The notes: generated by a model not told the origin, from the letters alone. Counted from the first letter of the stretch, positions 2,893 through 17,642 are shown. The stretch is 64,000 nt of DNA from Bryobacterales bacterium (GCA_016721425.1 JADKID010000020.1:20549-84548); one strand, 5' to 3'. Made by a program: numbers and translations.

Positions 2893-4461
2893 ATGAAACA
2901 CCTCCTCCGTCTCGCCGCCTGTACCGCCGCTCTAGCCCTGCTGGCGCCGGCCCAAGAGAAAGTCGACTACGACTCCATCTATAAGATCAAGCAGGAAGCC
3001 TTCCAGAACTCCAAAGTGATGGAGCACCTGTGGTACCTCACCGAGGTTCATGGACCCCGTCTAGCCGGATCCCCCAGCTACAAAGCCTCGGCCGATTGGG
3101 CCGTCAAGACGCTAAAGGGGTGGGGCATCGAGAACGCCCAACTCGAGCCTTGGACCGGCTTCGGCCGCGGCTGGGCCAACAAGAAGTTCGTGGCCGCCAT
3201 GACCGAGCCCAACTACACCCCCCTAGTGGGCTCGCCGCAGGCCTTCACGGCCTCCACCGAAGGCGTCATCTCCGGCGAGCCCATCATCGCCGTCCTCCGC
3301 ACTGACGAGGACCTCGCCAAGTGGAAAGGCAAGCTGGCCGGCAAGATCGTGCTGACAGACGCGCCGCGCGACATCCCGCTGCACGACAAGGCCGATAACC
3401 ACCGCTACACCGAGCAGGAACTGATAGATCTCACCGTTGCCCAGATCGGCGGCGGCGGCCGCCCGATGGCAGCGCCCGGCCAGCCCCCCATCAACTTCGT
3501 GCAGATGATGGGCTTCCGCCGCAAACTCACCGAGTTCCTCCGCGAGGAGAAGGTCGGCCTCATCATCGGCGGCAGCCGCGGCGACATGGGTACCTACTTC
3601 ACCTCCAACGGCGGCAGCCGCGACGTCAAGCAGCCCCAGACACCGCCCACCATGGTGGTCAGCACCGAGCAGTACAACCGCATCTACCGTCTGATCGACA
3701 AGAAAATTCCCGTCAAGCTCGAAGTGGAAATTCAGAATCAGTGGTTCGAGCCGGACACCAATACTTTTAATGTGGTTGCCGAAATCCCCGGCACCGGCAA
3801 GCACAAGGACGAGATCGTGATGATCGGCGGCCACCTCGATAGCTGGCACGCCGGTACGGGCGCCGCCGACAACGGTACGGGTACCGCCGTGATGCTCGAA
3901 GTGATGCGCATCATCAAGAAGCTCAACCTCAAGCTCGATCGCACCGTGCGCATCGGCCTGTGGGATGCGGAAGAAGAAGGGCTGCTCGGTTCACGCGCTT
4001 ACGTGACCAAGCACTTCGCCGACCGCGCCACCATGAAGACGCTGCCCGAATGGAACAAGCTGTCGGCCTACTACAATGTCGACAACGGCGCCGGCAAAAT
4101 CCGCGGCATCTACCTGCAGGGGAATGAATCCACCCGGCCGGTCTTTGAGGCGTGGATGGCTGCATTCAAGGATCTGGGCGCCGCCACGGTGACCATCCGC
4201 AACACCAGCGGCACTGATCACCAGAGCTTCGACGCAGTGGGCTTGCCCGGCTTCCAGTTTATCCAGGACCCGCTGGAGTACGATACCCGCGTTCACCACT
4301 CCAATATGGATGTGTACGATCGCGTGCCCCGCGCGGACATGATGCAGATGTCGGCCATCGTCGCCTCGTTGGTGGTGGAGACGGCGAACCGCGAGCAGAT
4401 GCTGCCCAGGAAGCCGAAGCCCGAGCCGCGGCCGGCGGGTCAGGGCGGAATGCCGTTCTAG
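2893..4461 (+). CDS. Secreted M28-family zinc aminopeptidase (with PA-like insert)
   Basis: 522-aa ORF with the signal peptide MKHLLRLAACTAALALLAPAQE. It carries the M28 metal-ligand blocks GGHLDSWHAGTGAADNGTG and WDAEEEGLLGSRAY. Confidence 0.85.
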   Translation: MKHLLRLAACTAALALLAPAQEKVDYDSIYKIKQEAFQNSKVMEHLWYLTEVHGPRLAGSPSYKASADWAVKTLKGWGIENAQLEPWTGFGRGWANKKFVAAMTEPNYTPLVGSPQAFTASTEGVISGEPIIAVLRTDEDLAKWKGKLAGKIVLTDAPRDIPLHDKADNHRYTEQELIDLTVAQIGGGGRPMAAPGQPPINFVQMMGFRRKLTEFLREEKVGLIIGGSRGDMGTYFTSNGGSRDVKQPQTPPTMVVSTEQYNRIYRLIDKKIPVKLEVEIQNQWFEPDTNTFNVVAEIPGTGKHKDEIVMIGGHLDSWHAGTGAADNGTGTAVMLEVMRIIKKLNLKLDRTVRIGLWDAEEEGLLGSRAYVTKHFADRATMKTLPEWNKLSAYYNVDNGAGKIRGIYLQGNESTRPVFEAWMAAFKDLGAATVTIRNTSGTDHQSFDAVGLPGFQFIQDPLEYDTRVHHSNMDVYDRVPRADMMQMSAIVASLVVETANREQMLPRKPKPEPRPAGQGGMPF

Positions 4462-4490
4462 TCGGATAGCCGACCGTAGTTTAGTAAAAA

Positions 4491-4533
4491 GGCGCCATTT
4501 TCCATGCGGGAGATGGCGCCTTCTTGTGTCTTT
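4491..4533 (+). terminator. Hairpin plus T-rich tail after the M28 peptidase; first copy of the cassette repeated upstream of each RCC1 paralog
   Basis: Perfect 8-bp stem GGCGCCAT (4491..4498) / ATGGCGCC (4513..4520) with a 14-nt loop. It is preceded by AAAAA and followed by TTCTTGTGTCTTT. Confidence 0.6.
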
Positions 4534-4559: not shown

Positions 4560-7500
4560 ATGACTCCGAATCTGTCCGGCCGCATTGTCCTGCCACTCTT
4601 CTTCTCGCTCGCATTGGCCGCGGCCGTTCCACTGGCGCCGCCGAAGTCGGGCACGGTCTCGGTCGGCTTCCGTCACAGCCTCTGGCTGAAGCCGGATGGC
4701 ACCGTCTGGGCCTGGGGCGCGAACTCATCGGGCCAGTTAGGCGATGGCACCTATACGCGCAGGACGGCGCCGGTCCCAGTCGTCGGGCTGACCAGCGTCG
4801 CTGCCATTGCGACCGGGGACGACTGGAGCATCGCGCTCCGCACCGACGGCACCATTTGGAGTTGGGGCGCCAACCATCACACCGCGTCGCCCTACCCCGC
4901 CTCCCTTCCCATGCCCACGCCTCTACCTTGGGGCTCCGGCGTCATCGCCATCGCTGCCAGTCCAAGCCTGAACCTGGCACTGAAGGCTGACGGCACTATA
5001 TGGCGGTGGGCCGGCACTGGGTTTCCGCTCATGACCGGGCCGGTCTGTGCCCAGGTTAGCGGCTTGATCGCCTTGGCTCAGGGGGGGATGGAGGGGGTGG
5101 GGCACTCGGTTTTTCTGCATCAAGACGGGACAGTTTGGACGAGTGGGCGTAACGCGGGCGGAGTGTTGGGCGATGGCACCACCACCGATAGGGACCAACC
5201 GGCGCCGGTGCCAGGCCTCACAGGCGTCACGGCAATTGGAGCCGGACATTCCCACACCGTGGCCCTCAAAGCTGATGGTACGGTTTGGGTTTGGGGCGGG
5301 GGTACCGCCGGGCAGTTAGGTGATGGGGCTATGAACTTGGCACGTCTGACACCCAAGATCGTTCCAGGCCTCAGCGGTATACGGCGAATCGGGGCGAGGG
5401 AGAATGGCACGTTCGCACAGGCTCTCGACGGCAGAGTCTGGGATTGGGGCACCTTTTTCTATGGCGAGTTTGGTGGCGGGATCACGCGGATGGCGCCCGT
5501 CGAGCTGCCGTCGCTGGCCGGAGCGTTTGCCATCGCGGAAGGCGTCAACCATGGCACGTTCCTGCGCCCTGACGGAGCACTCATGGCGTGGGGCAACAAC
5601 GCCGAGGGTCAGCTCGGTGCGGGCACGGCCAACATCAAGCTCTGGCCGGAAGTGGCTTCGGCAACGTCCGGCGTCGCCGCCGTGGCGGCTGGCACAAAGT
5701 ACAGCACATTCGTGAAGAACGACGGCACGGTCCTGGAATGGGGCTATACGCACAATGGAAGCATGCTGCCTGTGCCGAACCCCATGCCTGGCCTATTGAA
5801 TGTAGTTGGCACAGCCCAGGGCAGCATTCACAGCTATGCACTGAAGAGTGATGGCACCGTCTGGTCCTGGGGGAATGATTACGCCGGGTCTCTCGGCGAC
5901 GGATCCTCAACCTACCGGCCATATCCGCAAGTAATAGCCGGTCTTGCCAACATCAAAGCGATTGCGTCCGGTGACTATTTCGGTGTCGCGCTGAGCACTT
6001 CGGGTGCCGTCTGGACATGGGGCCTAAACCAACTTGGTCAACTGGGCGACGGAACTACAGCCAATCGTTGGAGCCCAGCGCCGGTGCCGGGTTTATCCGG
6101 AGTCAAGGCGATCGCCGTTGCCGGACCGAACGTGCTGGCGTTGAAGGATGATGGCACAGTGTGTGGATGGGGCCAGAACCGGTTGGGCCAACTGGGCGAT
6201 GGCACCAGCGCGATGCGCACACTGCCCGTGATGGCCTTCGGCCTGGCTAACATCACCGCAATCGCCGGCAGCGATGAGACCAGTCTCGCGCTCGGATCCG
6301 ATGGAACGGTGTGGAGTTGGGGCGGTGATCATGGCCTCGGAATTGGGTACGTTCCTGGACAGCTGACCGGCATTAGCGGCGTCCGCGCCATCTGGGCTGG
6401 ATACCAGGCCAGATTTGCACAAACAACCGATGGCACCATGTGGGCTTGGGGCTCAAATTGGTACGGTAATCTCGGTGACGGTACTGGGCTGGACTCGGCA
6501 AACCGGATTGTCCGGCTGAGCAGTCTGCCTCTCAACATCGTCTCCGTGTCGAGTTCGTCCGGTAACAACCTGGCGATCACTGCCTCCGGCCAATTGTATG
6601 CATGGGGCTATGTCCCGAGTGCCCAATGGACCCTGATCAACGTATCCTCATGGCCTCCTCAACTCGTGGCCAACACCGGCGCCTACACCCTGGGGACCAC
6701 TGAGATTTTCGCCACCACCACCGCCGGTTCTCAATCGGTGACGCTAACTACCACTACGCCCAGCCGCCCCTGGGTGGCCGCCCGTGACAGCTACTGGCTC
6801 AGTGCCACGCCCACCAACGGCGCCAACAACACTTCGCTGATCGTGAGTTGGCAGCAGAATCTGTACCCTGAGAGCCGCACCGGCACGATCCGACTCGGCG
6901 GCCAGGCCGTTACCGTCACTCAAGCCGGAACGGGAGCATCGTACAAGATTTCCGGCCATGTCCTCCTGAACGGTGCGGGTCTTCAGGGTGTTCCGATCAT
7001 GCTTTTCGGCCCCCAGAACCCCATTCAGCTGACCGACCGTGCTGGCTACTACGAATTCAAGACTCTGAGTGCGGGTGGCGCATTTGGCGTCGCGCCCATA
7101 GCACCCAACCTCCGCTTTCTACCAGTCGGTTTGGTGTTGGTCTATTTAACGGACAATCAAACCGTGGACTTCACGGCGCAGCAAAACGCCACTGGTTTTG
7201 GCGTCAGCCGCACTAGTTTAGCTTTTGCCAGCACACCGAATGGAAGCGTCGCTACGCCGCCCCAGGAGTTGACTGTCACGCTCACCGGCACGGACCCGTT
7301 GCTCTGGAACGCGACGTCCAGCAAACCCTGGCTCTCGGTTTCACCAGGGGCGGGCTCCAGCACCGGCAAGCTGACGGTCTCCCTTGTCCCCGCCGCCTTG
7401 CCGAAGTTCGGCACCGATACGGCCATTATCACGATCACCGCACCCAACCTGCCGGGCGGCACAGCCACCGTCACTTGCACCCTGACCATCGCCGGTGTCA

Positions 7501-8705
7501 CCACCGCGCCGCCCTACGGCTCCTTCGACACGCCCGGCCCGGTTCTTACCGGCCTCTCCGGCGGAGTCGCCGTCACCGGTTGGGCGCTCGACGACATCGG
7601 TGTGCAATCCGTGAAGATCTGGCGCGACCGGATCGGCTCCGAGCAGACCTATCCGAACGGGCTCGTCTACATCGGCGACGCCCTCTTTGTCCCCGGCGCC
7701 CGGCCTGACGTCGAAGCGGCGCACCCCACCCGTCCCGCCAACTACAACGCCGGTTGGGGCTACATGATGCTCTCCAACGCCCTGCCGAAGACCACACCCA
7801 GCGGCACTATGGGCAGCGGCACATATCGCCTCCACGCCATCGCCACCGATGTCGAGGGCCAATCCGCCACCATCGGCACGAAGACGATTACCGTCGATAA
7901 CAGGGGCTCCAGCAAGCCCTTCGGCGCGGTTGACGCGCCCGCGCCCGGCGCCACCATCGAAGGCGCGGCCTACCCCAACTCGGGCTGGGCGCTTACCCCG
8001 CAACCGGACATCATTCCGATCGACGGCTCCACGTTCGGCGTCTACGTAGATGGCGTCAATTTGGGAAAGCCCGTCTACAACCAGTTCCGCCCCGATGTCG
8101 CCGGGATCTTCCCGGGCCTTGCCAACAGCGCCGGGTCGGGCGGCAGCTACGTGCTGGACACGACGAAGCTCACCAACGGGATGCACTCCATCGCCTGGAG
8201 TGTGGCGGACGACCAGGGTCACATCGACGGGATCGGCAGCCGCTTCTTCCACATCCTAAACAGCGGAAGCACGGCTGCCATCGCTGCGCCAATGCCGCAG
8301 CCGAGCCCGATGCTCCGTGCCATTCGCGGAAACCGCCTCTCCGCCGAGACCGCCGGCTACCGCACAGGCTACGACGAGCAGGCCCCGCTCGTGCCGCTGC
8401 CGGCGGACGCCATTGCCGTGGCAGAACTCGAACGCATCGAACTGCACCTGCCCCCATCGCCCGAGGGCGCCATCTGGTCCGCTGCTCTACGCGTGGGCGA
8501 AGAAGTCAGACCCCTGCCCATCGGCTCGACCTTCGACCCCGAAGCTGGCGTTTTCTACTGGCAGCTTGGCCCCGGATTCCTCGGAGACTACATATTTGAG
8601 TTTCGGGCTACGCCGGATGCGAAGTCGGTGCGCGTGCGCGTCCGGGTCGGTGTGGGCGTTGATCGAGTCGAACAGAACCGCCGATCAGGGCCGGTGCCGT
8701 TCTAG
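4560..8705 (+). CDS. Giant secreted RCC1-repeat (double beta-propeller) protein with BACON-like, CarboxypepD_reg-like and unassigned beta-sandwich modules; paralog 1
   Basis: 1381-aa ORF with a hydrophobic N-terminus ([25 protein letters not shown]). I count 14 blades of the type DG[TS][12 protein letters not shown]. These are followed by [21 protein letters not shown]...[18 protein letters not shown] (BACON-like), ISGHVLLNGAGLQGVPI...TDRAGYYEFKTLSAGG (CarboxypepD_reg-like), a second BACON-like module, and two P[YF]G..D.P...GWAL...RPDV modules. Confidence 0.9.
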   Translation: MTPNLSGRIVLPLFFSLALAAAVPLAPPKSGTVSVGFRHSLWLKPDGTVWAWGANSSGQLGDGTYTRRTAPVPVVGLTSVAAIATGDDWSIALRTDGTIWSWGANHHTASPYPASLPMPTPLPWGSGVIAIAASPSLNLALKADGTIWRWAGTGFPLMTGPVCAQVSGLIALAQGGMEGVGHSVFLHQDGTVWTSGRNAGGVLGDGTTTDRDQPAPVPGLTGVTAIGAGHSHTVALKADGTVWVWGGGTAGQLGDGAMNLARLTPKIVPGLSGIRRIGARENGTFAQALDGRVWDWGTFFYGEFGGGITRMAPVELPSLAGAFAIAEGVNHGTFLRPDGALMAWGNNAEGQLGAGTANIKLWPEVASATSGVAAVAAGTKYSTFVKNDGTVLEWGYTHNGSMLPVPNPMPGLLNVVGTAQGSIHSYALKSDGTVWSWGNDYAGSLGDGSSTYRPYPQVIAGLANIKAIASGDYFGVALSTSGAVWTWGLNQLGQLGDGTTANRWSPAPVPGLSGVKAIAVAGPNVLALKDDGTVCGWGQNRLGQLGDGTSAMRTLPVMAFGLANITAIAGSDETSLALGSDGTVWSWGGDHGLGIGYVPGQLTGISGVRAIWAGYQARFAQTTDGTMWAWGSNWYGNLGDGTGLDSANRIVRLSSLPLNIVSVSSSSGNNLAITASGQLYAWGYVPSAQWTLINVSSWPPQLVANTGAYTLGTTEIFATTTAGSQSVTLTTTTPSRPWVAARDSYWLSATPTNGANNTSLIVSWQQNLYPESRTGTIRLGGQAVTVTQAGTGASYKISGHVLLNGAGLQGVPIMLFGPQNPIQLTDRAGYYEFKTLSAGGAFGVAPIAPNLRFLPVGLVLVYLTDNQTVDFTAQQNATGFGVSRTSLAFASTPNGSVATPPQELTVTLTGTDPLLWNATSSKPWLSVSPGAGSSTGKLTVSLVPAALPKFGTDTAIITITAPNLPGGTATVTCTLTIAGVTTAPPYGSFDTPGPVLTGLSGGVAVTGWALDDIGVQSVKIWRDRIGSEQTYPNGLVYIGDALFVPGARPDVEAAHPTRPANYNAGWGYMMLSNALPKTTPSGTMGSGTYRLHAIATDVEGQSATIGTKTITVDNRGSSKPFGAVDAPAPGATIEGAAYPNSGWALTPQPDIIPIDGSTFGVYVDGVNLGKPVYNQFRPDVAGIFPGLANSAGSGGSYVLDTTKLTNGMHSIAWSVADDQGHIDGIGSRFFHILNSGSTAAIAAPMPQPSPMLRAIRGNRLSAETAGYRTGYDEQAPLVPLPADAIAVAELERIELHLPPSPEGAIWSAALRVGEEVRPLPIGSTFDPEAGVFYWQLGPGFLGDYIFEFRATPDAKSVRVRVRVGVGVDRVEQNRRSGPVPF

Positions 8706-8724
8706 TCCCATGAGCAGTCATTAA

Positions 8725-8760
8725 GAAGGCGTCGCCTTTGTCACGGAAGCGGCGCCCTTC
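8725..8760 (+). terminator. Imperfect hairpin after paralog 1 (degenerate copy of the 4491 cassette)
   Basis: GAAGGCGTCGCC ... GCGGCGCCCTTC forms an imperfect stem and is followed by TTGTGT. Its position matches that of the 4491 hairpin. Confidence 0.35.
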
Positions 8761-8790
8761 TTGTGTCCGGCCTTTCAGTAACGGGATAAT
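8761..8790 (+). promoter_or_regulatory. Putative promoter of RCC1 paralog 2 (leaderless layout)
   Basis: TTGTGT (8761..8766), an 18-nt spacer, then GATAAT (8785..8790). The ATG at 8798 lies 7 nt downstream. Confidence 0.4.
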
Positions 8791-8797
8791 CAGGCCG

Positions 8798-11700
8798 ATG
8801 ACTCTGCTTTGGTCCGGCCGCCTCGCTCTGCCCCTATTCTTCTCGCTCGCCGTTGCTGCCGCGGTTCCGCTTACGCCGCCTCCGAATGGCGCAGTCGCCG
8901 TCGGTGTCCAGCACAGCCTCTGGCTGAAACCCGACGGCACCGTCTGGGCGTGGGGCGCAAACACGAACGGGCAACTGGGTGATGGTACCCTGACGCGCCG
9001 GACCGCCCCCGTCCCGGTGGTGGGGCTCACCAGCATTGCCGCCATTGCGGCGGGCAACAATTGGAGCATGGCGTTGCGTACGGACGGCACGGTGTGGAGT
9101 TGGGGCGCCGGCAAGTACTGCGGGTTTCCCTTCCTGGAGACCGTGAAGGTCCCAACCAGGCTGGACGCTCTGAATGGCGCCGTTTCCATCGGGGCCGGCT
9201 CCATGCACGGCATGGCCGTCAAGCGCGACGGCACCGTCTGGTGGTGGGGCGGCAACCAATTTGGAGCACCGTGGCCGCAAGTGCTGCCCGGCGTCGCCGA
9301 CGCCGCGGCCGTGGCCGGCGGCTGGGCCCACTCGGCTCTCCTCCGCAAGGACGGCACCGTTTGGACCTGGGGCTTCAACGAGTACGGCCAGTTGGGCGAT
9401 GGTTCGAAGGCCGCGAAATCTCTACCCATTCTCGTCCCCGGTCTCACCGGCGTCGTAGCGATAGGCGCCGGTGAATTTCACACGGTGGCACTTCAAAGCA
9501 ATGGAACGGTGTGGAGTTGGGGGCAGAATCTGAGCGCGCAGGTGGGGATTCTCTATGCGCCGGACCAACTCGCCCCGGTGCGCGTCCCAGGCATCCCAGC
9601 CATGAGAAGGATCTGGACGGGCGGCTACGGTACATCTGCCCAGACCGCTGATGGGCGCGTCTTTGAGTGGGGCGGGTACTTCTCCGGAGAACTTGGCTAC
9701 GGTTCCTTTGACGTCGCGCCCTCCGAGCTGCCCGCGCTGGCCGGATCGCTGGCGCTCGCCCGAGGCTACGGGCATGGTATGGCTCTGCGCCCGGACGGCG
9801 CACCCGTGGCCTGGGGCAATAATGCGCACGGCCAGCTTGGCGATGGCAAGGCAGTGATTCGATTCTGGCCCGGACAGGTGGCGCCCCTGGCCGGCGTTGT
9901 TTCCGCCGCGGCCGGCGAGATGCACTCGGTAGCGGTGAAGGGGGACGGCACAGTCTGGGAATGGGGCCGCAAGGAGCGCGGATTCGGCTATCCCTCCGGG
10001 CCGCCCACGTCCATACCATCGGTCGTGAACGGAATCTCCGGCGCCGCAGCAGTTGCCGAGGGCGCCTTTCACACCTACGTTTTGAAAAGTGACGGCAGCG
10101 TCTGGTCCTGGGGATTCGACTACAACAATTCCACGGGCTGCCTGGGCGATGCGACGTCGCCGTACCGGCCGAGTCCTCTGCCCATTACCGGGCTCTCCAA
10201 CATCAAGACAATCCGTTCCGGACAGTATTTCGGCGTTGCATTGACCAAGACCGGCAGTGTCTGGACCTGGGGGCAGAACAACATCGGCCAGCTCGGCGAT
10301 GGTACTACTGCCAACCGTGCGGCGCCCGCGCCGGTTCCGGGCCTCTCCGGCATCACAGAGATCGCTACCGGCACCTATTCCGCCCTGGCCTTGCGCAACG
10401 ACGGAACGGTGTGGGCTTGGGGCTCTAATTCGTTCGGCCAGCTCGGCGATGGCACGTATACGGATAGCCCTTCGCCCCGGCTGGTTTCCGGACTGAACAG
10501 TGTCGTCGCCATCGCCAACAGCGAGACCATCAACCTCGCCTTGCGCCAGGACGGTACCGTTTGGGGATGGGGCGACCGCAACGGCCATGGACTCGGGGCC
10601 AGCCCTGTTCCCGTGCAGATTCCCGGCCTCAGCGGCGTCAAGGCCATCTGGGCGGGGTACGAGTCCCGTTTCGCCCAGAAGACCGACGGCTCAATCTGGG
10701 CCTGGGGCTCGAACAGATTTGGAAACCTGGGCGATGGTACAGGACTCGACTCCTTCTCTGGCCTTGTGCGGCCCGCGAATCTGGCGGCCAATACGGCCCT
10801 GATCACGGGATCCAATTCTCACGAGCTGTCAGTGACCGCCGCTGGGGAATTGTGGGCATGGGGTTACGTCCCCAGCGCCGATTGGTGGGGGGCTGAATTC
10901 TCGACGCTTACTCCGCAGCCCGTCCTCAACACCGGCGCCTATGCCCTAGCCACCTCTGAGATCCAGGCCACCGCCGCCGCCGGTTCCCAGTCGGTGGCGC
11001 TCACCGCCACGACGCCAAGCCGCCCCTGGGTGGCCGCCCGCGACAGCTACTGGTTGAGCGCCACCCCTACCAACGGCGCCAACAACACCATGCTCTCCGT
11101 CAGTTGGCAGCAGAACCCCTACCCGGAGAGCCGCACCGGCACCATTCGGCTCGGTGGCCAGGCCGTCACCGTCACTCAGGCCGGCACCGGCCAGTCGTAC
11201 ACCATCTCCGGGACCGTCACCAATGGCCCCGGCATCCCGGTGATGCTCACCGGCCCCCAAAACATCACCACCCTGACGGGCTCCGCCGGCCACTATCAAT
11301 TCCCAACCCTCGCCGCCGGTGGCGCCTTCGCTGTCACGCCCATCGCCCCCAACCTGGGGATCTCCCCGCCCAGCCGGGTGGTGAATTCCCTCTCCGCCAA
11401 CCAGACCTTCGACTTTGCTGCCTCTCAGAACGCTGTCAGCCTCGCCGTCGATCGCTCCGCACTCTATTTCGCCGGCAACGCGAACGGCTCCGTCGTCTCG
11501 CCGCCCCAGGAGCTCAGCGTCACCCTCACCGGCGTCTCGCCCCTTCTCTGGCTCGCAACCTCTAGCAAGCCGTGGCTATCCGTCACCGGCGCTGGCTCTT
11601 CCACCGGCAAGCTGACGGTCTCCCTTGTCCCCGCCGCCTTGCCGAAGTTCGGCACCGATACGGCCATTATCACGATCACCGCACCCAACCTGCCGGGCGG

Positions 11701-12915
11701 CACAGCCACCGTCACTTGCACCCTGACCATCGCCGGTGTCACCACCGCGCCGCCCTACGGCTCCTTCGACACGCCCGGCAAGATTCTCACCGGCCTCTCC
11801 GGCGGCATCGCCGTCACCGGTTGGGCGCTCGATGACCTCGGTGTCCAATCCGTGAAGATCTGGCGCGATCGCATCGGTTCGGAGCAGACCTATCCCAACG
11901 GGCTCGTCTACATCGGGGACGCCCTCTTTGTCCCCGGCGCCCGCCCCGACGTCGAAGCGGCTCACCCCACCCGCCCAGCCAACTACGGTGCGGGTTGGGG
12001 CTACATGATGCTCTCCAACGCCCTGCCGAAGACGACGCCCAGCGGCACCATGGGCAGCGGCACCTACCGCCTCCACGCCATTGCCACCGATGTCGAGGGC
12101 CAGTCCGCCACTATCGGCACGAAGACGATTACCGTCGATAACAGGGGCTCCAGCAAGCCTTTCGGCGCGGTTGACGCGCCCGCGCCCGGCGCCACCATCG
12201 AAGGCGCGGCCTACCCCAACTCGGGCTGGGCGCTCACCCCGCAGCCGGACCTCATCCCGATCGACGGCTCCACGTTCGGCGTCTATGTGGATGGCGTTAA
12301 TTTGGGCAAACCCGTCTACAACCAATTCCGCCCTGATGTCGCCGGGATCTTCCGGGCCTAGCCAACAGCGCCGGCTCCGGCGGCAGCTATGTGCTGGATA
12401 CGACGAAGCTCTCCAACGGGATGCACTCCATCGCCTGGAGCGTGGCCGACGACAAGGGCCACATCGACGGGATCGGCAGCCGCTTCTTCCACATCCTGAA
12501 CAGCGGAAGCACCGCCGCCATCGCATCGCCGATGCCGCAGCCGAGCCCGATGCTGCGCGCCATTCGCAGACACCGCCTCTCCGCCGAGACCGCCGGCTAC
12601 CGCACGGGCTACGACGCGGAGGCCCCGCTCGTGCCGCTGCCCGCGGACGCCATCACAGTGGCAGAACTGGAACGCCTCGAACTCCACCTGCCTGCAATGG
12701 CGGAGGGGGCAAACTGGTCCGCCGCACTCCGCGTTGGCGACGAGCTCAGAACTCTCCCCATCGGTTCCACGTGCGACGCCGAAGCCTGCATCTTCTACTG
12801 GCAACTCGGCCCGGGATTCCTGGGAGAGTTCGTGCTCGAATTCCGCCCGGCCCCCGACGCGGAGCCACTCCCGGTTCGCATCCGCGTGGGAGCGGGCGTG
12901 GCGCGAGTCGAGTAG
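8798..12915 (+). pseudogene. RCC1-repeat giant protein, paralog 2, interrupted by a 1-nt deletion near 12352
   Basis: The ORF-track pieces 8738..12361 and 12391..12915 are colinear with paralogs 1 and 3. I chose the start at 8798 ([25 protein letters not shown]) by conservation with the other two copies. Paralogs 1 and 3 read atcttcCCCgggcct (IFPGLA), whereas this copy reads atcttcCCgggccTAG (IFRA*). The downstream frame continues ANSAGSGGSYVLDTTKLSNGMHSIAW... Confidence 0.85.
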
Positions 12916-12981
12916 AACGCCGGCAAAACGACCCGGTTTCGCTAATAATGCGCCATTTTCCGTGTGGGAGTCGGCGCCTTA

Positions 12982-13010
12982 TTGTGTGATGGCAGGGAAT
13001 TCGACATAAT
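12982..13010 (+). promoter_or_regulatory. Putative promoter of RCC1 paralog 3 (leaderless layout)
   Basis: TTGTGT (12982..12987), a 17-nt spacer, then CATAAT (13005..13010). The ATG at 13018 lies 7 nt downstream. A weakened copy of the hairpin (GCGCC...GGCGC, 12950..12977) precedes it. Confidence 0.4.
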
Positions 13011-13017
13011 CAGACCG

Positions 13018-16000
13018 ATGACTCCGAATTGCGCCGGCTGCATTCTCCTGCCTGTCCTCTTCTCCTTCGCGCTGGGCGCGGCCCCGCTCACGCCGCCGCC
13101 GGAGGGTGCGGTCGCCGTGGGCGCTCAACACAGCCTCTGGCTCAAGCCCGACGGCTCCGTTTGGGCCTGGGGTGCGAACTTTGCAGGACAACTCGGCGAC
13201 GGCTCCTACCTCCGAAGGACCGCACCCGTCCCCGTTGTTGAGCTCAGCAGCATTGTCGCCATTGTCGCGGGTGATCACTGGAGCATGGCTCTCCGCTCGG
13301 ACGGTACGGTTTGGAGCTGGGGCTCCCACAACATGGCTGACTATCGTTCGCCGGGCTGGAAAGGCACTCCCAGTTTGCTATTTTCGCTACCCGGAACCAT
13401 TGCCGTTGCGGGAAATCCAACCTCAGGCAGAGCGATAACCGGCGACGGGCTCGTTTGGGAGTGGGCCGGTGATGGGACCGGACGCGCCACACTGCGACAG
13501 TTGACGGGAGTCAGCGAAATGGCAGCCGTCGTCAGCGGGACTGGGCACTTCGTTCTACTTCGCAGAGATGGCACAGTCTGGACTTCGGGTTCCAACCTCA
13601 GCGGGCAGTTGGGCGATGGCACCACCACGACAAGAAGCGAACTGATTCAGGTGCCGGGCCTGGCTGGCATCGCGGCTGTGGCTGCTGGACGGTCCCACAC
13701 GGTTGCGCTGAAGGCCGACGGCAGCGTTTTAGCCTGGGGTGATGGCCGTCTTTACCAGATAGGTGACGGTATCTGGGCCAACCACACTTCGCCGGTGCAG
13801 ATTGCGGGGCTGGCGCAGATTCAGCGTATCGTGGCTGGCGGAGACGGGACGGTAGCGGTCGAAACTGGCGGGCGGGTTTGGCAATGGGGTCAGGCCGCAT
13901 ACGGAGAGTTCAGTCGCGGAGGTTTCCGCCAGACGCCCACAGAGCAGCCCCAGCTCAATGGGATCAAGGCGCTCGCAATCGGTACGTCTCATTGCCTGGC
14001 CCTTGGCGTGGACGGCGCACCAGTGTCGTGGGGCAACAATGCGAACGGCCAGCTTGGTACTGGCTCCGCCATCATCCGCCTCTGGCCCGAACTCACTCCA
14101 GTGATCTCCGGCGTCGTATCAGCCGCGCCGGGCTTGATGCACAGCATGGTGGTGAAGAACGACGGCACGCTCTGGGAATGGGGCGACAGGAACTATGCCT
14201 ATTCCTTTGCACTTGGCGCGCCGGCGTCCGTTCCGTCGCAGGTGGCGGGGATATCCAATGTCGTCCTCGCCGCCGAGGGGGCGGGCCACAGCTACGCGCT
14301 CACCTCCGACGGCACGGTCTGGAGTTGGGGAGGAGACCCGCAGAACCTGGGCGTGCTGGGGCAAGGGCCTGCCATTCGAACCCTGTCCTCTCCGCAGCCT
14401 ATCGCCGGCCTGTCCGGCATCAAGTCGATCCTGTCCGGTCCCTACTTCGGGGCGGCGTTGAGCGATTCCGGAGAGGTGTGGACTTGGGGACAAAACCTGT
14501 ACGGTCAGCTCGGCGATGGTACGCTGACCAATCGGGATGCTCCCGTGCGTGTGCCCGGACTCCAGGGCGTCAAGGCCATCGCCTCCGGCAAGTATCATAT
14601 GCTCGCCCTTCTTGACGACGGAACGGTTTGGTCCTGGGGTTCCAACGGGAACCGGCGACTGGGCGACGGCACAACAACTTCCCGCGCAACACCGGGAAAG
14701 GTCCCCGTCGTGTCGGGCATCACGGCCATCGCTACCAGTGATATCGCTGGCCTCGCTCTGAAGTCCGACGGTACCGTCTGGGGCTGGGGAGGCGACTTCA
14801 GAGATTTCAGTGCCGCCCCTGGCCTCTTTCCCGCGCAAGTTCCTGGTCTGACCGGTATCCGTTCGATTTGGGCGGGTGATGGGGTGCGTTTCGTTCAGAG
14901 GGCCGACAATTCCGTTTGGGTTTGGGGGGCGAGCTCCTATGGAAATCTGGGGGATTCCAGCGGCTCGCTCTTTCAGTACGACCCGCCTGTCCGGGTAGCG
15001 AACCTCCCCGCTGATGTGACTTCGATCTCCGGCTTACTCGGTCACACTCTGGCGGTCACCAGCGCAGGGGAGTTGTGGTCCTGGGGCTACGTCCCCAGCG
15101 CCCAAATGTCGGACGCTGGGGATCTGGCGCCGGCGCCGCAACTTGTGGCGAACTCCGGCTCCTATGCGCTCAGCTCCTCCGAGATCGTGGCCTCATCCGC
15201 CGCCGGCTCGCAATCCGTGTCCCTCTCCACCGGCAACGACGTTCTTCCCTGGGCCGCGGTTCCGGATAGCGCTTGGCTGAGCGCCACGCCCGGCGCCGGG
15301 AATGGCAGCGCCACGCTCACCCTCAATTGGCCGCAGAACCAACGCCCCGAGAGCCGGATCGCGACGATCCGCGTCGGTGGCGAGGCGGTGATAGTGACTC
15401 AGGCCGGAACAGGACCCACCTACTCGATTTCCGGCACTGTCCGCGCCAATGGTGCCGGCGTACCTGGAGTTGCTGTCACGCTCAGCGCTTCACTGGACTT
15501 CGCCTCATCTCAGCCGAGCTCTAGAATCAGTAAACTGACCGACTCCTCCGGCCATTACGAGTTCACTACGCTCACCGCTGGCGGAAGTTTCTACGTGACA
15601 CCCATCGCCAACACCTTGAGGTTCACGCCGGATAGCGCAAGCGCGGGGCCTCTCGCGGCCAACCAAATCTTGGACTTCACGGTTTTCCAGGAGCCTACAA
15701 CGCTGGCTGTCGATCGCACCAGTCTCCAATTCGCCAGTAACCAGGGCCGGTCCATCGTCACACCGCCCCAGGAACTTACCGTCAGACTGACCGGCGGCGC
15801 CCCTCTGGTTTGGAACGCGGTCTCCAGCAAGCCCTGGCTCACCGTCACCCCCTCTACCGGGTCCGCCAGTGGCAAAGCGCTGGTCTCCCTGGTATCTTCG
15901 AACCTGCCCAAGACCGGCGCCGACAGCGCAACCATCACGATCACTACCCCAAACCTTCCCAACGGGGCTGTTACGGTGAAATGCACCCTGACCATCGCCG

Positions 16001-17181
16001 GCGCCGCCACCGCGCCGCCCTACGGCTCCTTCGACACGCCCGGCAAGATTATCACCGGCCTCTCCGGCGGCATCGCCGTCACCGGTTGGGCGCTCGATGA
16101 CCTCGGTGTCCAATCCGTGAAGATCTGGCGCGATCGCATCGGTTCGGAGCAGACCTATCCCAACGGGCTCGTCTACATCGGGGACGCCCTCTTTGTCCCC
16201 GGCGCCCGCCCCGACGTCGAAGCGGCTCACCCCACCCGCCCCGCCAACTACACAGCCGGTTGGGGCTACATGATGCTCTCCAACGCCCTGCCGAAGATGA
16301 CGCCCAGCGGCACCATGGGCAGCGGCACCTACCGCCTCCACGCCATTGCCACCGATGTCGAGGGCCAGTCCGCCACTATCGGCACGAAGACGATTACCGT
16401 CGATAACAGGGGCTCCAGCAAGCCCTTCGGCGCGGTGGATGCGCCCGCGCCAGGCGCCACCATCGAAGGCGCGGCCTACCCCAACTCGGGCTGGGCGCTC
16501 ACCCCGCAGCCGGACCTCATCCCGATCGACGGCTCCACGTTCGGCGTCTACGTAGATGGCGTCAATTTGGGAAAGCCCGTCTACAACCAATTCCGCCCTG
16601 ATGTCGCCGGGATCTTCCCGGGCCTAGCCAACAGCGCCGGCTCCGGCGGCAGCTATGTGCTGGATACGACGAAGCTCTCCAACGGGATGCACTCCATCGC
16701 CTGGAGCGTGGCCGACGACAAGGGTCACATCGACGGGATCGGCAGCCGCTTCTTCCACATCCTAAACAGCGGAAGCACGGCTGCCATCGCTGCGCCAATG
16801 CCGCAGCCGAGCCCGATGCTGCGGGCCATTCGCAGACACCGCCTCTCCGCCGAGACCGCCGGCTACCGCACGGGCTACGACGCGGAGGCCCCGCTCGTGC
16901 CGCTGCCCGCGGACGCCATCACAGTGGCAGAACTTGAACGCCTCGAGCTGCACCTGCCGCCAGCGCCCGAGGGCGCCATCTGGTCCGCCGCACTCCGCGT
17001 CGGCGAGGAGCTCAGACCTCTCCCAATCGGCTCCACCTTCGACGCCGAAGCCTGCATCTTCTACTGGCAACTCGGCCCGGGATTCCTGGGAGAGTTCGCA
17101 CTAGAATTCCGCTCGGCCCCGGACTCCGCTCCGCTCCCGGTTCGCATCCGCGTCGCCGCCTGGACGTCCCGAACGCAGTAA
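13018..17181 (+). CDS. RCC1-repeat giant protein, paralog 3
   Basis: The ORF track gives 12964..17181. I prefer the start at 13018 (MTPNCAGCILLPVLFSFALGAAPL), which aligns with the starts of paralogs 1 and 2. The module order is the same as in paralog 1, and the C-terminal ~450 aa are nearly identical to paralogs 1 and 2. Confidence 0.9.
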   Translation: MTPNCAGCILLPVLFSFALGAAPLTPPPEGAVAVGAQHSLWLKPDGSVWAWGANFAGQLGDGSYLRRTAPVPVVELSSIVAIVAGDHWSMALRSDGTVWSWGSHNMADYRSPGWKGTPSLLFSLPGTIAVAGNPTSGRAITGDGLVWEWAGDGTGRATLRQLTGVSEMAAVVSGTGHFVLLRRDGTVWTSGSNLSGQLGDGTTTTRSELIQVPGLAGIAAVAAGRSHTVALKADGSVLAWGDGRLYQIGDGIWANHTSPVQIAGLAQIQRIVAGGDGTVAVETGGRVWQWGQAAYGEFSRGGFRQTPTEQPQLNGIKALAIGTSHCLALGVDGAPVSWGNNANGQLGTGSAIIRLWPELTPVISGVVSAAPGLMHSMVVKNDGTLWEWGDRNYAYSFALGAPASVPSQVAGISNVVLAAEGAGHSYALTSDGTVWSWGGDPQNLGVLGQGPAIRTLSSPQPIAGLSGIKSILSGPYFGAALSDSGEVWTWGQNLYGQLGDGTLTNRDAPVRVPGLQGVKAIASGKYHMLALLDDGTVWSWGSNGNRRLGDGTTTSRATPGKVPVVSGITAIATSDIAGLALKSDGTVWGWGGDFRDFSAAPGLFPAQVPGLTGIRSIWAGDGVRFVQRADNSVWVWGASSYGNLGDSSGSLFQYDPPVRVANLPADVTSISGLLGHTLAVTSAGELWSWGYVPSAQMSDAGDLAPAPQLVANSGSYALSSSEIVASSAAGSQSVSLSTGNDVLPWAAVPDSAWLSATPGAGNGSATLTLNWPQNQRPESRIATIRVGGEAVIVTQAGTGPTYSISGTVRANGAGVPGVAVTLSASLDFASSQPSSRISKLTDSSGHYEFTTLTAGGSFYVTPIANTLRFTPDSASAGPLAANQILDFTVFQEPTTLAVDRTSLQFASNQGRSIVTPPQELTVRLTGGAPLVWNAVSSKPWLTVTPSTGSASGKALVSLVSSNLPKTGADSATITITTPNLPNGAVTVKCTLTIAGAATAPPYGSFDTPGKIITGLSGGIAVTGWALDDLGVQSVKIWRDRIGSEQTYPNGLVYIGDALFVPGARPDVEAAHPTRPANYTAGWGYMMLSNALPKMTPSGTMGSGTYRLHAIATDVEGQSATIGTKTITVDNRGSSKPFGAVDAPAPGATIEGAAYPNSGWALTPQPDLIPIDGSTFGVYVDGVNLGKPVYNQFRPDVAGIFPGLANSAGSGGSYVLDTTKLSNGMHSIAWSVADDKGHIDGIGSRFFHILNSGSTAAIAAPMPQPSPMLRAIRRHRLSAETAGYRTGYDAEAPLVPLPADAITVAELERLELHLPPAPEGAIWSAALRVGEELRPLPIGSTFDAEACIFYWQLGPGFLGEFALEFRSAPDSAPLPVRIRVAAWTSRTQ

Positions 17182-17186
17182 ACTCG

Positions 17187-17642
17187 ATGGCAATGGAGAA
17201 AGAGGTGCTCGAATTCACGGCCCAGTACTTCGGAGTGAATTCGGAAAGCCTCTCGCTCCGGACTCGTCCCTATCCGGATCTCTGCCTGGATGACACCCGC
17301 ATGGAGGCATTTCTCTGGCGCTTCAGCCAGCATTTCGGCGTGTCCTTTCCAAAGCTCAATAACCGCCAATCGGTGGCGTATCTGGCGCGTCTGGCCCTTG
17401 GTTCCAGAGTAGGCGCGCTTTTTGGGTGCCGACCGCGCCTGGCCTTGGGCTCAGTGGCGGCGGCAGCTTCCGGAACTCCGACGTCACCCGCCTCAGCCCC
17501 TGGCTCACCCTCGCCGACCTCACCCGGGCCGCTACCCGCGCGGCGCCCCGTCCAGGATTGTCCGGTACACCGTCTCATACCGCGGAATAATCTTCGACGT
17601 GCAGAAACGCGTCTCCGCCGTCTCCCGCGCCGCCCAGCGTAG
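17187..17642 (+). CDS. Hypothetical small protein; only the first ~60 aa look protein-like
   Basis: 151-aa ORF starting 6 nt after paralog 3. The N-terminus is MAMEKEVLEFTAQYFGVNSESLSLRTRPYPDLCLDDTRMEAFLWRFSQHFGVSFPKL, and the remainder is low-complexity Pro/Ala/Arg. There is no SD sequence. The last ~110 nt overlap the convergent GT4 gene. Confidence 0.3.
   Translation: MAMEKEVLEFTAQYFGVNSESLSLRTRPYPDLCLDDTRMEAFLWRFSQHFGVSFPKLNNRQSVAYLARLALGSRVGALFGCRPRLALGSVAAAASGTPTSPASAPGSPSPTSPGPLPARRPVQDCPVHRLIPRNNLRRAETRLRRLPRRPA

Follow-up and report, generated by a model that had tools for sequence, protein, structure and literature searches.

Repeated short-tract gene conversion as the probable cause of C-terminal homogenisation in a tandem array of propeller genes from Bryobacterales

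In bacteria, paralogs such as tufA/tufB and the rRNA operons are kept more alike than orthologs of different genomes by non-reciprocal homologous recombination. Short-tract non-reciprocal transfer between repeated segments of surface genes also produces mosaics, as in the Neisseria pilE/pilS and Borrelia vlsE systems, where promoterless silent cassettes accompany one expression site and it is the variable region that conversion diversifies. In Helicobacter pylori, clustering of babA/babB and homA/homB is between strains for the 5' and middle segments and within the strain for the 3' segment; this 3' homogenisation has been put down to RecA-dependent intragenomic recombination, and chimeric genes and variation in copy number and locus have also been described (PMC3960876, which summarises Pride & Blaser 2002). 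The subject of the present work is a gene array in a stretch of 64,000 nucleotides (nt) from a metagenome-assembled genome (MAG) of an uncultured Bryobacterales bacterium, presumably of soil or sludge (GCA_016721425.1, JADKID010000020.1:20549-84548). This whole stretch is called the window here, and positions are counted from its first letter. Its + strand carries three tandem same-strand paralogs, named c1, c2 and c3, which encode large secreted propeller proteins. The mosaic in these genes is best explained by repeated short-tract intragenomic gene conversion that is limited to the C-terminal module, with a probability of roughly 0.77.

The array resembles babA/babB in that a variable, presumably ligand-binding part is combined with a homogenised C-terminal part. 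However, the H. pylori proteins are beta-barrel outer-membrane proteins of the Hop family, unrelated to the secreted RCC1 propeller/BACON/immunoglobulin-like (Ig-like) proteins described here, and their loci are dispersed, whereas c1-c3 form a tandem array. The H. pylori case also relies on experiments and many strains, in contrast to one MAG and comparative evidence here, and the present lineage is an environmental one of the Acidobacteriota, without a host-interaction context. In tufA/tufB and the rRNA operons whole genes are homogenised under strong purifying selection, whereas here only one module is homogenised and the remainder is saturated. Unlike pilE/pilS and vlsE, the array consists of three full-length genes, each with its own leader and start, and conversion homogenises the constant region. 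Cassette-type antigenic variation was considered and set aside, since every copy is a complete gene that has a conserved leader, a start codon and a signal peptide, and it is the constant region that is exchanged.

Gene conversion between bacterial paralogs is already well established, and the array does not change what is known of its mechanism. Its value lies in an unusually clean and quantifiable case of partial-gene concerted evolution in Bryobacterales (Acidobacteriota), a rarely cultured environmental lineage. The boundary of exchange falls inside a multidomain gene, leaving a module of ~400 amino acids (aa) near-identical and the presumed ligand-binding propellers saturated.

The array and the extent of the homogenised block

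The c1 gene (4560-8705, + strand) was delimited by open reading frame (ORF) prediction, translation and Pfam searches; it encodes 1381 aa and corresponds to IPP47_19395. The c2 gene (8798-12915, + strand) and the c3 gene (13018-17181, + strand) share the architecture of c1 and of each other; c2 carries one frameshift and has the deposited product IPP47_19400, and the c3 protein (1387 aa) is 100% identical to IPP47_19410. The source record of the three genes is thus the Bryobacterales MAG with locus tags IPP47_19395-19410. The start of c3 is the ATG at 13018, instead of the GTG at 12964 given by the mechanical ORF. No further copy of the gene is present within the 64-kb window.

Sliding nucleotide identity between the copies is 45-70% across the propellers and most of the stalk. 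It rises to 90-100% from 7347/7361 (c1 against c2) or from ~7501 (against c3), remains at that level up to ~8440 and then decays. The homogenised block occupies 7347-8600 in c1, 11588-12840 in c2, where it contains the frameshift site, and 16007-17098 in c3, always on the + strand. In c1 coordinates its onset falls within the last part of the second BACON domain, ~700 nt 3' of the propeller.

The first-pass annotation had proposed that the stalk is homogenised and the propeller is spared. The sparing of the propeller holds, but homogenisation is restricted to the last ~1.1-1.25 kb, and most of the stalk is diverged: the first BACON domain, the CarboxypepD_reg-like domain and most of BACON_2 differ as much as the propeller does, except at 6666-6900. 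This stretch of the first BACON domain (c2 10922-11160, + strand) shows 82-84% nucleotide identity between c1 and c2 versus ~60% to c3, and a synonymous divergence (dS) of 0.72 for c1-c2 versus 1.1-1.2 to c3. It is an older, partly decayed tract of exchange between c1 and c2.

Identical tracts and the switching mosaic

Within the block, direct comparison confirmed the central claim of the first-pass annotation, namely that the pair of copies that is identical switches along the gene. In tract A, 178 nt of c1 (7361-7538) are exactly identical to c2 (11602-11779), and c3 is clearly diverged, with differences at 46 sites. In tract B, 190 nt of c2 (11787-11976) are exactly identical to c3 (16052-16241), and c1 differs at 16 sites, mostly synonymous; of the nucleotide differences between c1 and c2 in this tract, 15 belong to synonymous codons and 2 to non-synonymous ones. 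Tract C links the non-adjacent copies: the identity that had been reported between 16543-16589 of c3 and 8037-8083 of c1 (47 nt) is exact and extends to 68 nt (c1 8016-8083, c3 16522-16589), with c2 differing at 5 sites. From 16590 onward c3 follows c2 again, as had been proposed, the two copies being identical over 12311-12458 of c2 once a 1-nt deletion in this copy is ignored. The later return of c3 to c1 was also found, as a second tract of 100 nt (8215-8314 in c1, 16721-16820 in c3) at which c2 differs at 7 sites. Further exact tracts join c2 and c3 (126, 98, 107 and 110 nt) and c1 and c2 (74 nt), and all of these lie on the + strand. The tracts shared by c1 and c3 therefore indicate exchange between non-adjacent copies.

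The patchwork had been held to exceed what simple divergence after duplication can produce, and the clustering of variable sites bears this out. The 167 variable sites of 7361-8600 were classed by which copy is the odd one and compared with 20,000 permutations, and they form 41 runs versus 111.4±5.6 in the permuted data (minimum 88; p<5e-5). The result does not depend on tract A, since 40 runs versus 67.3±4.2 (p<5e-5) are obtained without this block, and the sites with c1 or c2 as the odd copy, taken alone, form 19 runs versus 42.9±4.1 (z=-5.9). The maximum chi-square test was significant in all three copy pairs. A 3SEQ-style maximum-descent test with c3 as the child of c1 and c2 gave no signal over 7539-8600 (p=1); it is uninformative here because its statistic is designed for one recombinant segment and is overwhelmed by a 75:29 imbalance. 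Beyond position 7539 of c1 the c3 copy has only 8 private sites, and it agrees with c2 at 75 sites and with c1 at 29. Since c3 is almost never the odd copy in this region, it would be either the main donor or the main recipient.

Synonymous divergence, estimated by the Nei-Gojobori method, follows the same boundary. In the propellers dS is 1.5-2.2, that is, saturated, whereas over 7539-8440 it is 0.10 for c2-c3, 0.23 for c1-c3 and 0.30 for c1-c2, with a non-synonymous divergence of 0.008-0.027. The C-terminal block thus shows a roughly 10-fold drop and a low synonymous divergence. Sequence constraint without recombination, in the form of purifying selection, codon bias, an antisense gene or RNA structure, might be invoked for such similarity, given that the C-terminal module is conserved in >1300 proteins at 45-58% aa identity and that long antisense ORFs overlap the block (7341-8252, 11576-12526 and 15505-16590). 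Constraint can lower the number of differences, but it produces neither their clustering by lineage nor the switching of the identical pair, and the clustering tests reject it as a sole cause. Moreover, most of the remaining differences are synonymous and it is the synonymous sites that are homogenised, so amino-acid constraint is not the cause of the similarity; distant homologs are only ~50% identical, which indicates that the module tolerates change. An antisense gene or RNA element was also rejected, because the antisense ORFs, which are expected in DNA of 64% G+C, have no Pfam match and the tRNA and Rfam searches of the window gave no match. The probability of an explanation by constraint is practically negligible.

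The pattern is found again in an unrelated genome, GCA_029973955.1, which carries two tandem homologs (8174-11989 and 12040-15861 of the locus L007) and a third one that lies on a separate contig (L015). Nucleotide identity among these homologs is 41-69% in the propellers and 88-99% in the C-terminal ~800 nt, and the three-way site patterns are likewise clustered (51 runs versus 87±5.2, p<5e-5). C-terminal homogenisation therefore appears to be a recurrent property of the family, and an accident of one assembly is unlikely. In the same genome, the first tandem copy has an in-frame stop at ~9986 and is called as two genes, and a 67-nt remnant at 7976-8042, 95.5% identical to the 3' end of the second copy, lies upstream beside a 129-aa RCC1 fragment. 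The remnant and the in-frame stop suggest a further copy that has decayed.

The frameshift of c2 deserves separate mention. At 12352-12353 this copy has CC where c1 and c3 have CCC (context TCTTCC[C]GGGCC), a 1-nt deletion with which the first frame ends in a stop at 12361, although the homologous frame is open up to 12915. The gene is thereby split into ORFs 8738-12361 and 12391-12915, and putting the missing base back leaves no stops. The deposited annotation has the same frameshift, as the shortened product IPP47_19400 of 1187 aa (P0127). The deletion sits within a tract otherwise identical to c3 (12311-12458), and the frame downstream is free of stops, which leaves two readings, a very recent event or a sequencing error in the homopolymer. 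Among the copies of the array, c2 looks freshly frameshifted.

This deletion in a CCC run is typical of long-read errors, and it raises the question of whether the mosaic as a whole could come from assembly, polishing or consensus building, either by merging of co-occurring strains or by mis-assignment of reads among repeats that are 92-100% identical. The source is a MAG, and there was no second assembly of the strain among the collections searched. The IPP47 locus-tag series may belong to a Nanopore-plus-Illumina activated-sludge MAG project. The pipeline of such a Nanopore/Illumina activated-sludge project consisted of CANU, Racon, Medaka twice and Racon with Illumina reads (PMC8012365).

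Several features of the array speak against this origin. Several switch points lie between discordant sites that are only 2-5 nt apart (e.g. 7733/7736), a spacing that a graph path crossing over in a shared identical stretch is unable to generate. With 121 variable sites over 7539-8600, one per about 9 nt on average, reads can be placed without ambiguity outside the identical tracts, and within these tracts nothing is left to alter. Phasing of each 4.2-kb unit would be secured by long reads that reach into the divergent propellers. Such an artefact could make patches, but the 10-fold drop in dS and the incongruence of regional trees described below are beyond its reach, and GCA_029973955.1, which was assembled independently, shows the same pattern. 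General weakness of the assembly is not indicated, since four flanking genes are intact and match their orthologs in length and gene order. An artefact is accordingly considered very improbable as the source of the mosaic.

Relatives, tree incongruence and the history of the locus

Three sequences allow one unrooted topology only, and for this reason outgroups were added to examine whether a single tree accounts for all segments. The search with full-length c3 returned the relatives P0122 (74% identity to c3), P0124 (Paludibaculum sp.), P0125 and P0126. The search of genome and metagenome contig collections with c1 returned only distant relatives (33-49% identity), and the search with the C-terminal module alone had a best match of 54% and missed the window's own proteins. 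P0004 and P0139 are singletons and carry no information on arrays. Two syntenic loci were found, L010 (Paludibaculum sp., GCA_036504135.1) and L013 (ERZ21831265), with one gene copy each. Both are flanked by an M28 peptidase upstream and by a GT4 glycosyltransferase, a GH-like gene, a histidine kinase and a methyltransferase downstream. The flanking genes of the window show 92-94% nucleotide identity to those of L010 (dS 0.25-0.37) and 84-86% to those of L013 (dS 0.65-0.79), and these values were taken as baselines.

Neighbour-joining trees of different regions conflict with each other at high bootstrap values. In the propeller tree, each copy pairs with a protein of another genome, c1 with P0124, c2 with P0125 and c3 with P0122, with 100% bootstrap for each pair, whereas in the tree of the C-terminal module c1, c2 and c3 form a clade with 100% bootstrap. 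The middle region groups c2 with P0124 (100%), and the tail groups c3 with P0124 (83%). In the C-terminal module the aa identity is 95-99% among the three copies versus 89, 77 and 65% to P0124, P0122 and P0125, respectively. The paralogs are thus closer to each other within the genome in this module and the reverse is true in the propellers, which is the pattern of concerted evolution. The three modules differ mutually by no more than the baseline between the window and L010.

The informative sites of four-taxon alignments tell the same story at a finer scale. They support three incompatible splits and, whichever of three outgroups is used, fall in 10-13 runs versus an expectation of 30-35 (p<5e-5). 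In c1 coordinates, blocks of sites that group c1 with c2 (7385-7498), c2 with c3 (7596-8010), c1 with c3 (8045-8048), c2 with c3 (8084-8159), c1 with c3 (8219-8273) and c2 with c3 (8315-8436) follow each other, and more are found downstream. In tract A, 14 consecutive sites favour c1 with c2 against c3 with the outgroup, and at 8219-8285 a block of sites pairs c1 with c3 and c2 with the outgroup. A single tree for all segments, which the first-pass annotation had named as the finding that would overturn its proposal, therefore fails with all three outgroups. Its wider proposal of repeated short-tract recombination agrees with the runs, maximum chi-square, dS, tree and four-taxon results.

The closeness of each head to a protein of another genome also fits a different history, in which a recent tandem triplication was followed by replacement of the heads, and in c1 and c3 also of the stalk, through recombination with divergent alleles of other strains or species. 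The C-terminal modules would then be alike owing to the youth of the copies. Homology arms would have been provided by the 5' leader/signal region, which is conserved, and by the C-terminal module, and the patchwork would be made of staggered end-points of import and of imported patches. It is consistent with such a history that the heads resemble proteins of other genomes far more than they resemble each other, that L010 and L013 have a single copy at the syntenic locus, and that the 5' ~250 nt of the copies are also relatively conserved (70-88%). The L010 propeller has a dS of 1.64 to c1, far above the genome baseline of 0.25-0.37, so the heads have been replaced or are very old types. The clustered odd-copy states that are shared with L010 would fit as well.

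On the other hand, the alternating blocks downstream of 7539 need exchange between the copies in any case. The dS between the c2 propeller and L013 (0.60) is near the flank baseline of 0.65-0.79, as in vertical descent, so the c2 head type predates the species split. The GC content at third codon positions (GC3) of the propellers (0.69-0.76 at 4810-6650, 9050-10900 and 13270-15130 of the window) is below the genome baseline, but it is likewise low in the same regions of L007, L009, L010 and L013, and so in all the genomes examined. The low value belongs to the family as a whole and does not point to recent import. Furthermore, the junctions between the copies differ, which indicates two separate duplications, and in GCA_029973955.1 a dispersed copy is homogenised too. 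Triplication with head replacement overlaps with gene conversion between the copies rather than excluding it, and as a full account of the array it is considered unlikely.

The junctions are themselves informative about the origin of the array. A terminator-like hairpin stands before c1 (4489-4522, + strand, -25.4 kcal/mol), and homologous, weaker hairpins stand before c2 (8726-8759, + strand, -16.5 kcal/mol) and c3 (12947-12980, + strand, -13.3 kcal/mol). Each hairpin is followed by a conserved leader that ends in ATAATCAG(G/A)CCGATG. Since hairpin and leader precede every copy, the intergenic region is part of the repeat unit, and the same element stands ahead of the one gene at each of the loci L010 and L013. 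The last 22 nt of c1, stop included (8684-8705, + strand), copy the last 23 nt of the M28 peptidase gene (4439-4461), and the same end of the M28 gene is kept in the alignment of L010 and L013. The copied end at 8684-8705 marks the duplication junction between c1 and c2. At the junction between c2 and c3, the end of c2 is joined to the sequence just 3' of the M28 stop. Because the two junctions differ, at least two duplication events took place.

Copy number at this locus thus varies from 1 to 3 between genomes whose flanks are 92-94% identical, and the single gene of L010 (10001-14077) is a chimera. Its 5' end is c1-like (80-88% nucleotide identity), its middle is c2-like (80-96%, dS 0.36), its C-terminal module is about equally like c1, c2 and c3, and its tail is c3-like (92-94%, dS 0.41). 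Collapse of an array by unequal crossing-over would leave such a gene, but its head is far from c1 (dS 1.64), and the chimera may also reflect the path of a short-read assembly through repeats. The loci L011 and L012 are listed beside L010 for a chimeric single gene.

Taken with the tests above, gene conversion between the copies would most likely have operated as follows. The three paralogs would be old duplicates, or at least old sequence types, whose last ~1.1-1.25 kb, comprising the end of BACON_2 and the ~400-aa C-terminal Ig-like module, would have been repeatedly overwritten by short non-reciprocal homologous recombination among the copies. The tracts would measure ~50-190 nt between the bounding discordant sites and would involve all three pairs of these direct repeats, which lie 4.2-8.5 kb apart. 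The propellers and most of the stalk, at 45-70% nucleotide identity, are presumably too diverged to seed recombination, and exchange in these parts may also be selected against. A loop could be established in this way, in which conversion would need a high identity that is itself kept up by conversion. The near-identical direct repeats could also act as substrates for unequal crossing-over, which fits the finding that the syntenic locus of two related genomes has a single copy and that this gene is chimeric in the closest relative. The mosaic and its significance, the dS contrast, the conflict between regional trees and the recurrence in a second genome are shown here; we infer the RecA-type enzymology, the direction of transfer and the cause of the boundary.

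Some observations weigh against this reading of the array and have to be set beside it. L010 has the state of the odd copy at about a third of the sites, and these sites are clustered; recombination with other strains, or a polymorphism that is old and shared, may therefore account for some patches in place of exchange between the copies. When conversions were polarised with L010, the outcome was mixed and clustered and gave no direction, and three copies leave room for several directions and numbers of events. The block has no signature of GC-biased conversion: its GC3 (0.84-0.86) equals the genome baseline (0.80-0.88), and GC-biased gene conversion was rejected on this ground. Each of the three proteins is known from a single sequence on a single contig of a MAG. 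Finally, the frameshift of c2 could be a residual homopolymer error, in which case the stretch would not be error-free.

Domain architecture, the C-terminal module and other features of the window

Each protein consists, from N- to C-terminus, of a signal-peptide-like hydrophobic N-terminus, ~680 aa of RCC1-like repeats, a BACON domain, a CarboxypepD_reg-like sandwich, a BACON_2 domain and the ~400-aa C-terminal module. In c1 the RCC1-like propellers span aa ~30-710, BACON 737-789 and BACON_2 882-974, with the beta-sandwich between the two BACON domains and the C-terminal Ig-like module after them. The Pfam E-values for c1 are 5.7e-114 (WD40_RLD), 2.8e-66 (RCC1), 9.9e-10 (BACON_2) and 1.8e-5 (BACON). 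Membership was examined for the RCC1-like families PF00415, PF13540 and PF25390 and for the BACON families PF13004 and PF19190. WD40_RLD scores of 381.6 and 410.6 bits (gathering cut-off 150) and RCC1 scores of 220-221 bits over 7-8 stretches (cut-off 21.7) place the proteins among the RCC1-like propellers. Likewise, BACON_2 scores of 38.7 and 53.8 bits (cut-off 25) place them among the BACON proteins; the BACON score is 31.4 in c3 and 25.0 in c1, exactly at the cut-off. The Pfam match of the CarboxypepD_reg-like sandwich is below threshold. One relative is named by NCBI as 'BACON domain-containing carbohydrate-binding protein [Paludibaculum sp.]'. The RCC1 and BACON matches are shared with known bacterial families, whereas this architecture has no assigned function and its C-terminal module has no family.

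For the ~400-aa module there was no Pfam or NCBIfam family, with only sub-threshold matches to Big_7 and Big_13 in Pfam, and the sequence search of the PDB gave no match. The AlphaFold2 model, built on a 41-sequence alignment, is a chain of Ig-like beta-sandwiches with a predicted local distance difference test (pLDDT) of 85.5 and a predicted template modelling score (pTM) of 0.80. Foldseek returned only generic tandem Ig/FN3-like proteins with low TM-scores. The module (7350-8702 of the window and its homologs) has 40 invariant columns over 41 diverse proteins. Its carriers belong to Bryobacterales, Aminicenantes and others and have many unrelated heads, among them PPC, cohesin, GH18, FN3, YD repeats and RCC1. 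A C-terminal sorting or anchor domain, such as the type IX secretion system Por_Secre_tail or PEP-CTERM, was rejected, as there is no NCBIfam match and the C-termini are hydrophilic (...RRSGPVPF, ...GVARVE and ...WTSRTQ). The module is likely to be a common anchoring or assembly chassis. The MAG with the IPP47 tags encodes at least two further carriers of the module at ~50% identity (IPP47_05225 and a BACON protein), which are not homogenised with the trio.

A broader role of the locus can be put forward tentatively. It might be a modular 'head-swapping' site, in which the leader/signal region and the C-terminal module act as homology arms for the exchange of propellers. If this doubtful idea were true, Paludibaculum-like populations would swap divergent heads and stack them into tandem arrays, which unequal crossing-over would in turn reduce to chimeric single genes. 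Concerted evolution would then keep a cassette system competent for recombination and hence would not be neutral, and the C-terminal module, joined to many heads in >1300 proteins, could be a general chassis. In any event, trees built from whole proteins of this family would be chimeric, and its annotation and phylogeny need care; the module itself, widespread, uncharacterised and common to many heads, is worth attention.

Two minor observations concern the surroundings of the array. Directly 3' of it, the small ORF 17187-17642 has no Pfam match and is 86% identical to 14089-14490 of L010 at the DNA level but only 59% identical at the protein level. Judging from this disparity, it may have a frame difference or be a non-coding region. 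Upstream of the array, the + strand ORFs 76-1284 and 1306-2619 have no Pfam match and show a GC content of 0.81-0.82 at first codon positions and of 0.61 at third positions, which is the reverse of the real genes here; the real gene is probably on the - strand, e.g. at 1348-2616.

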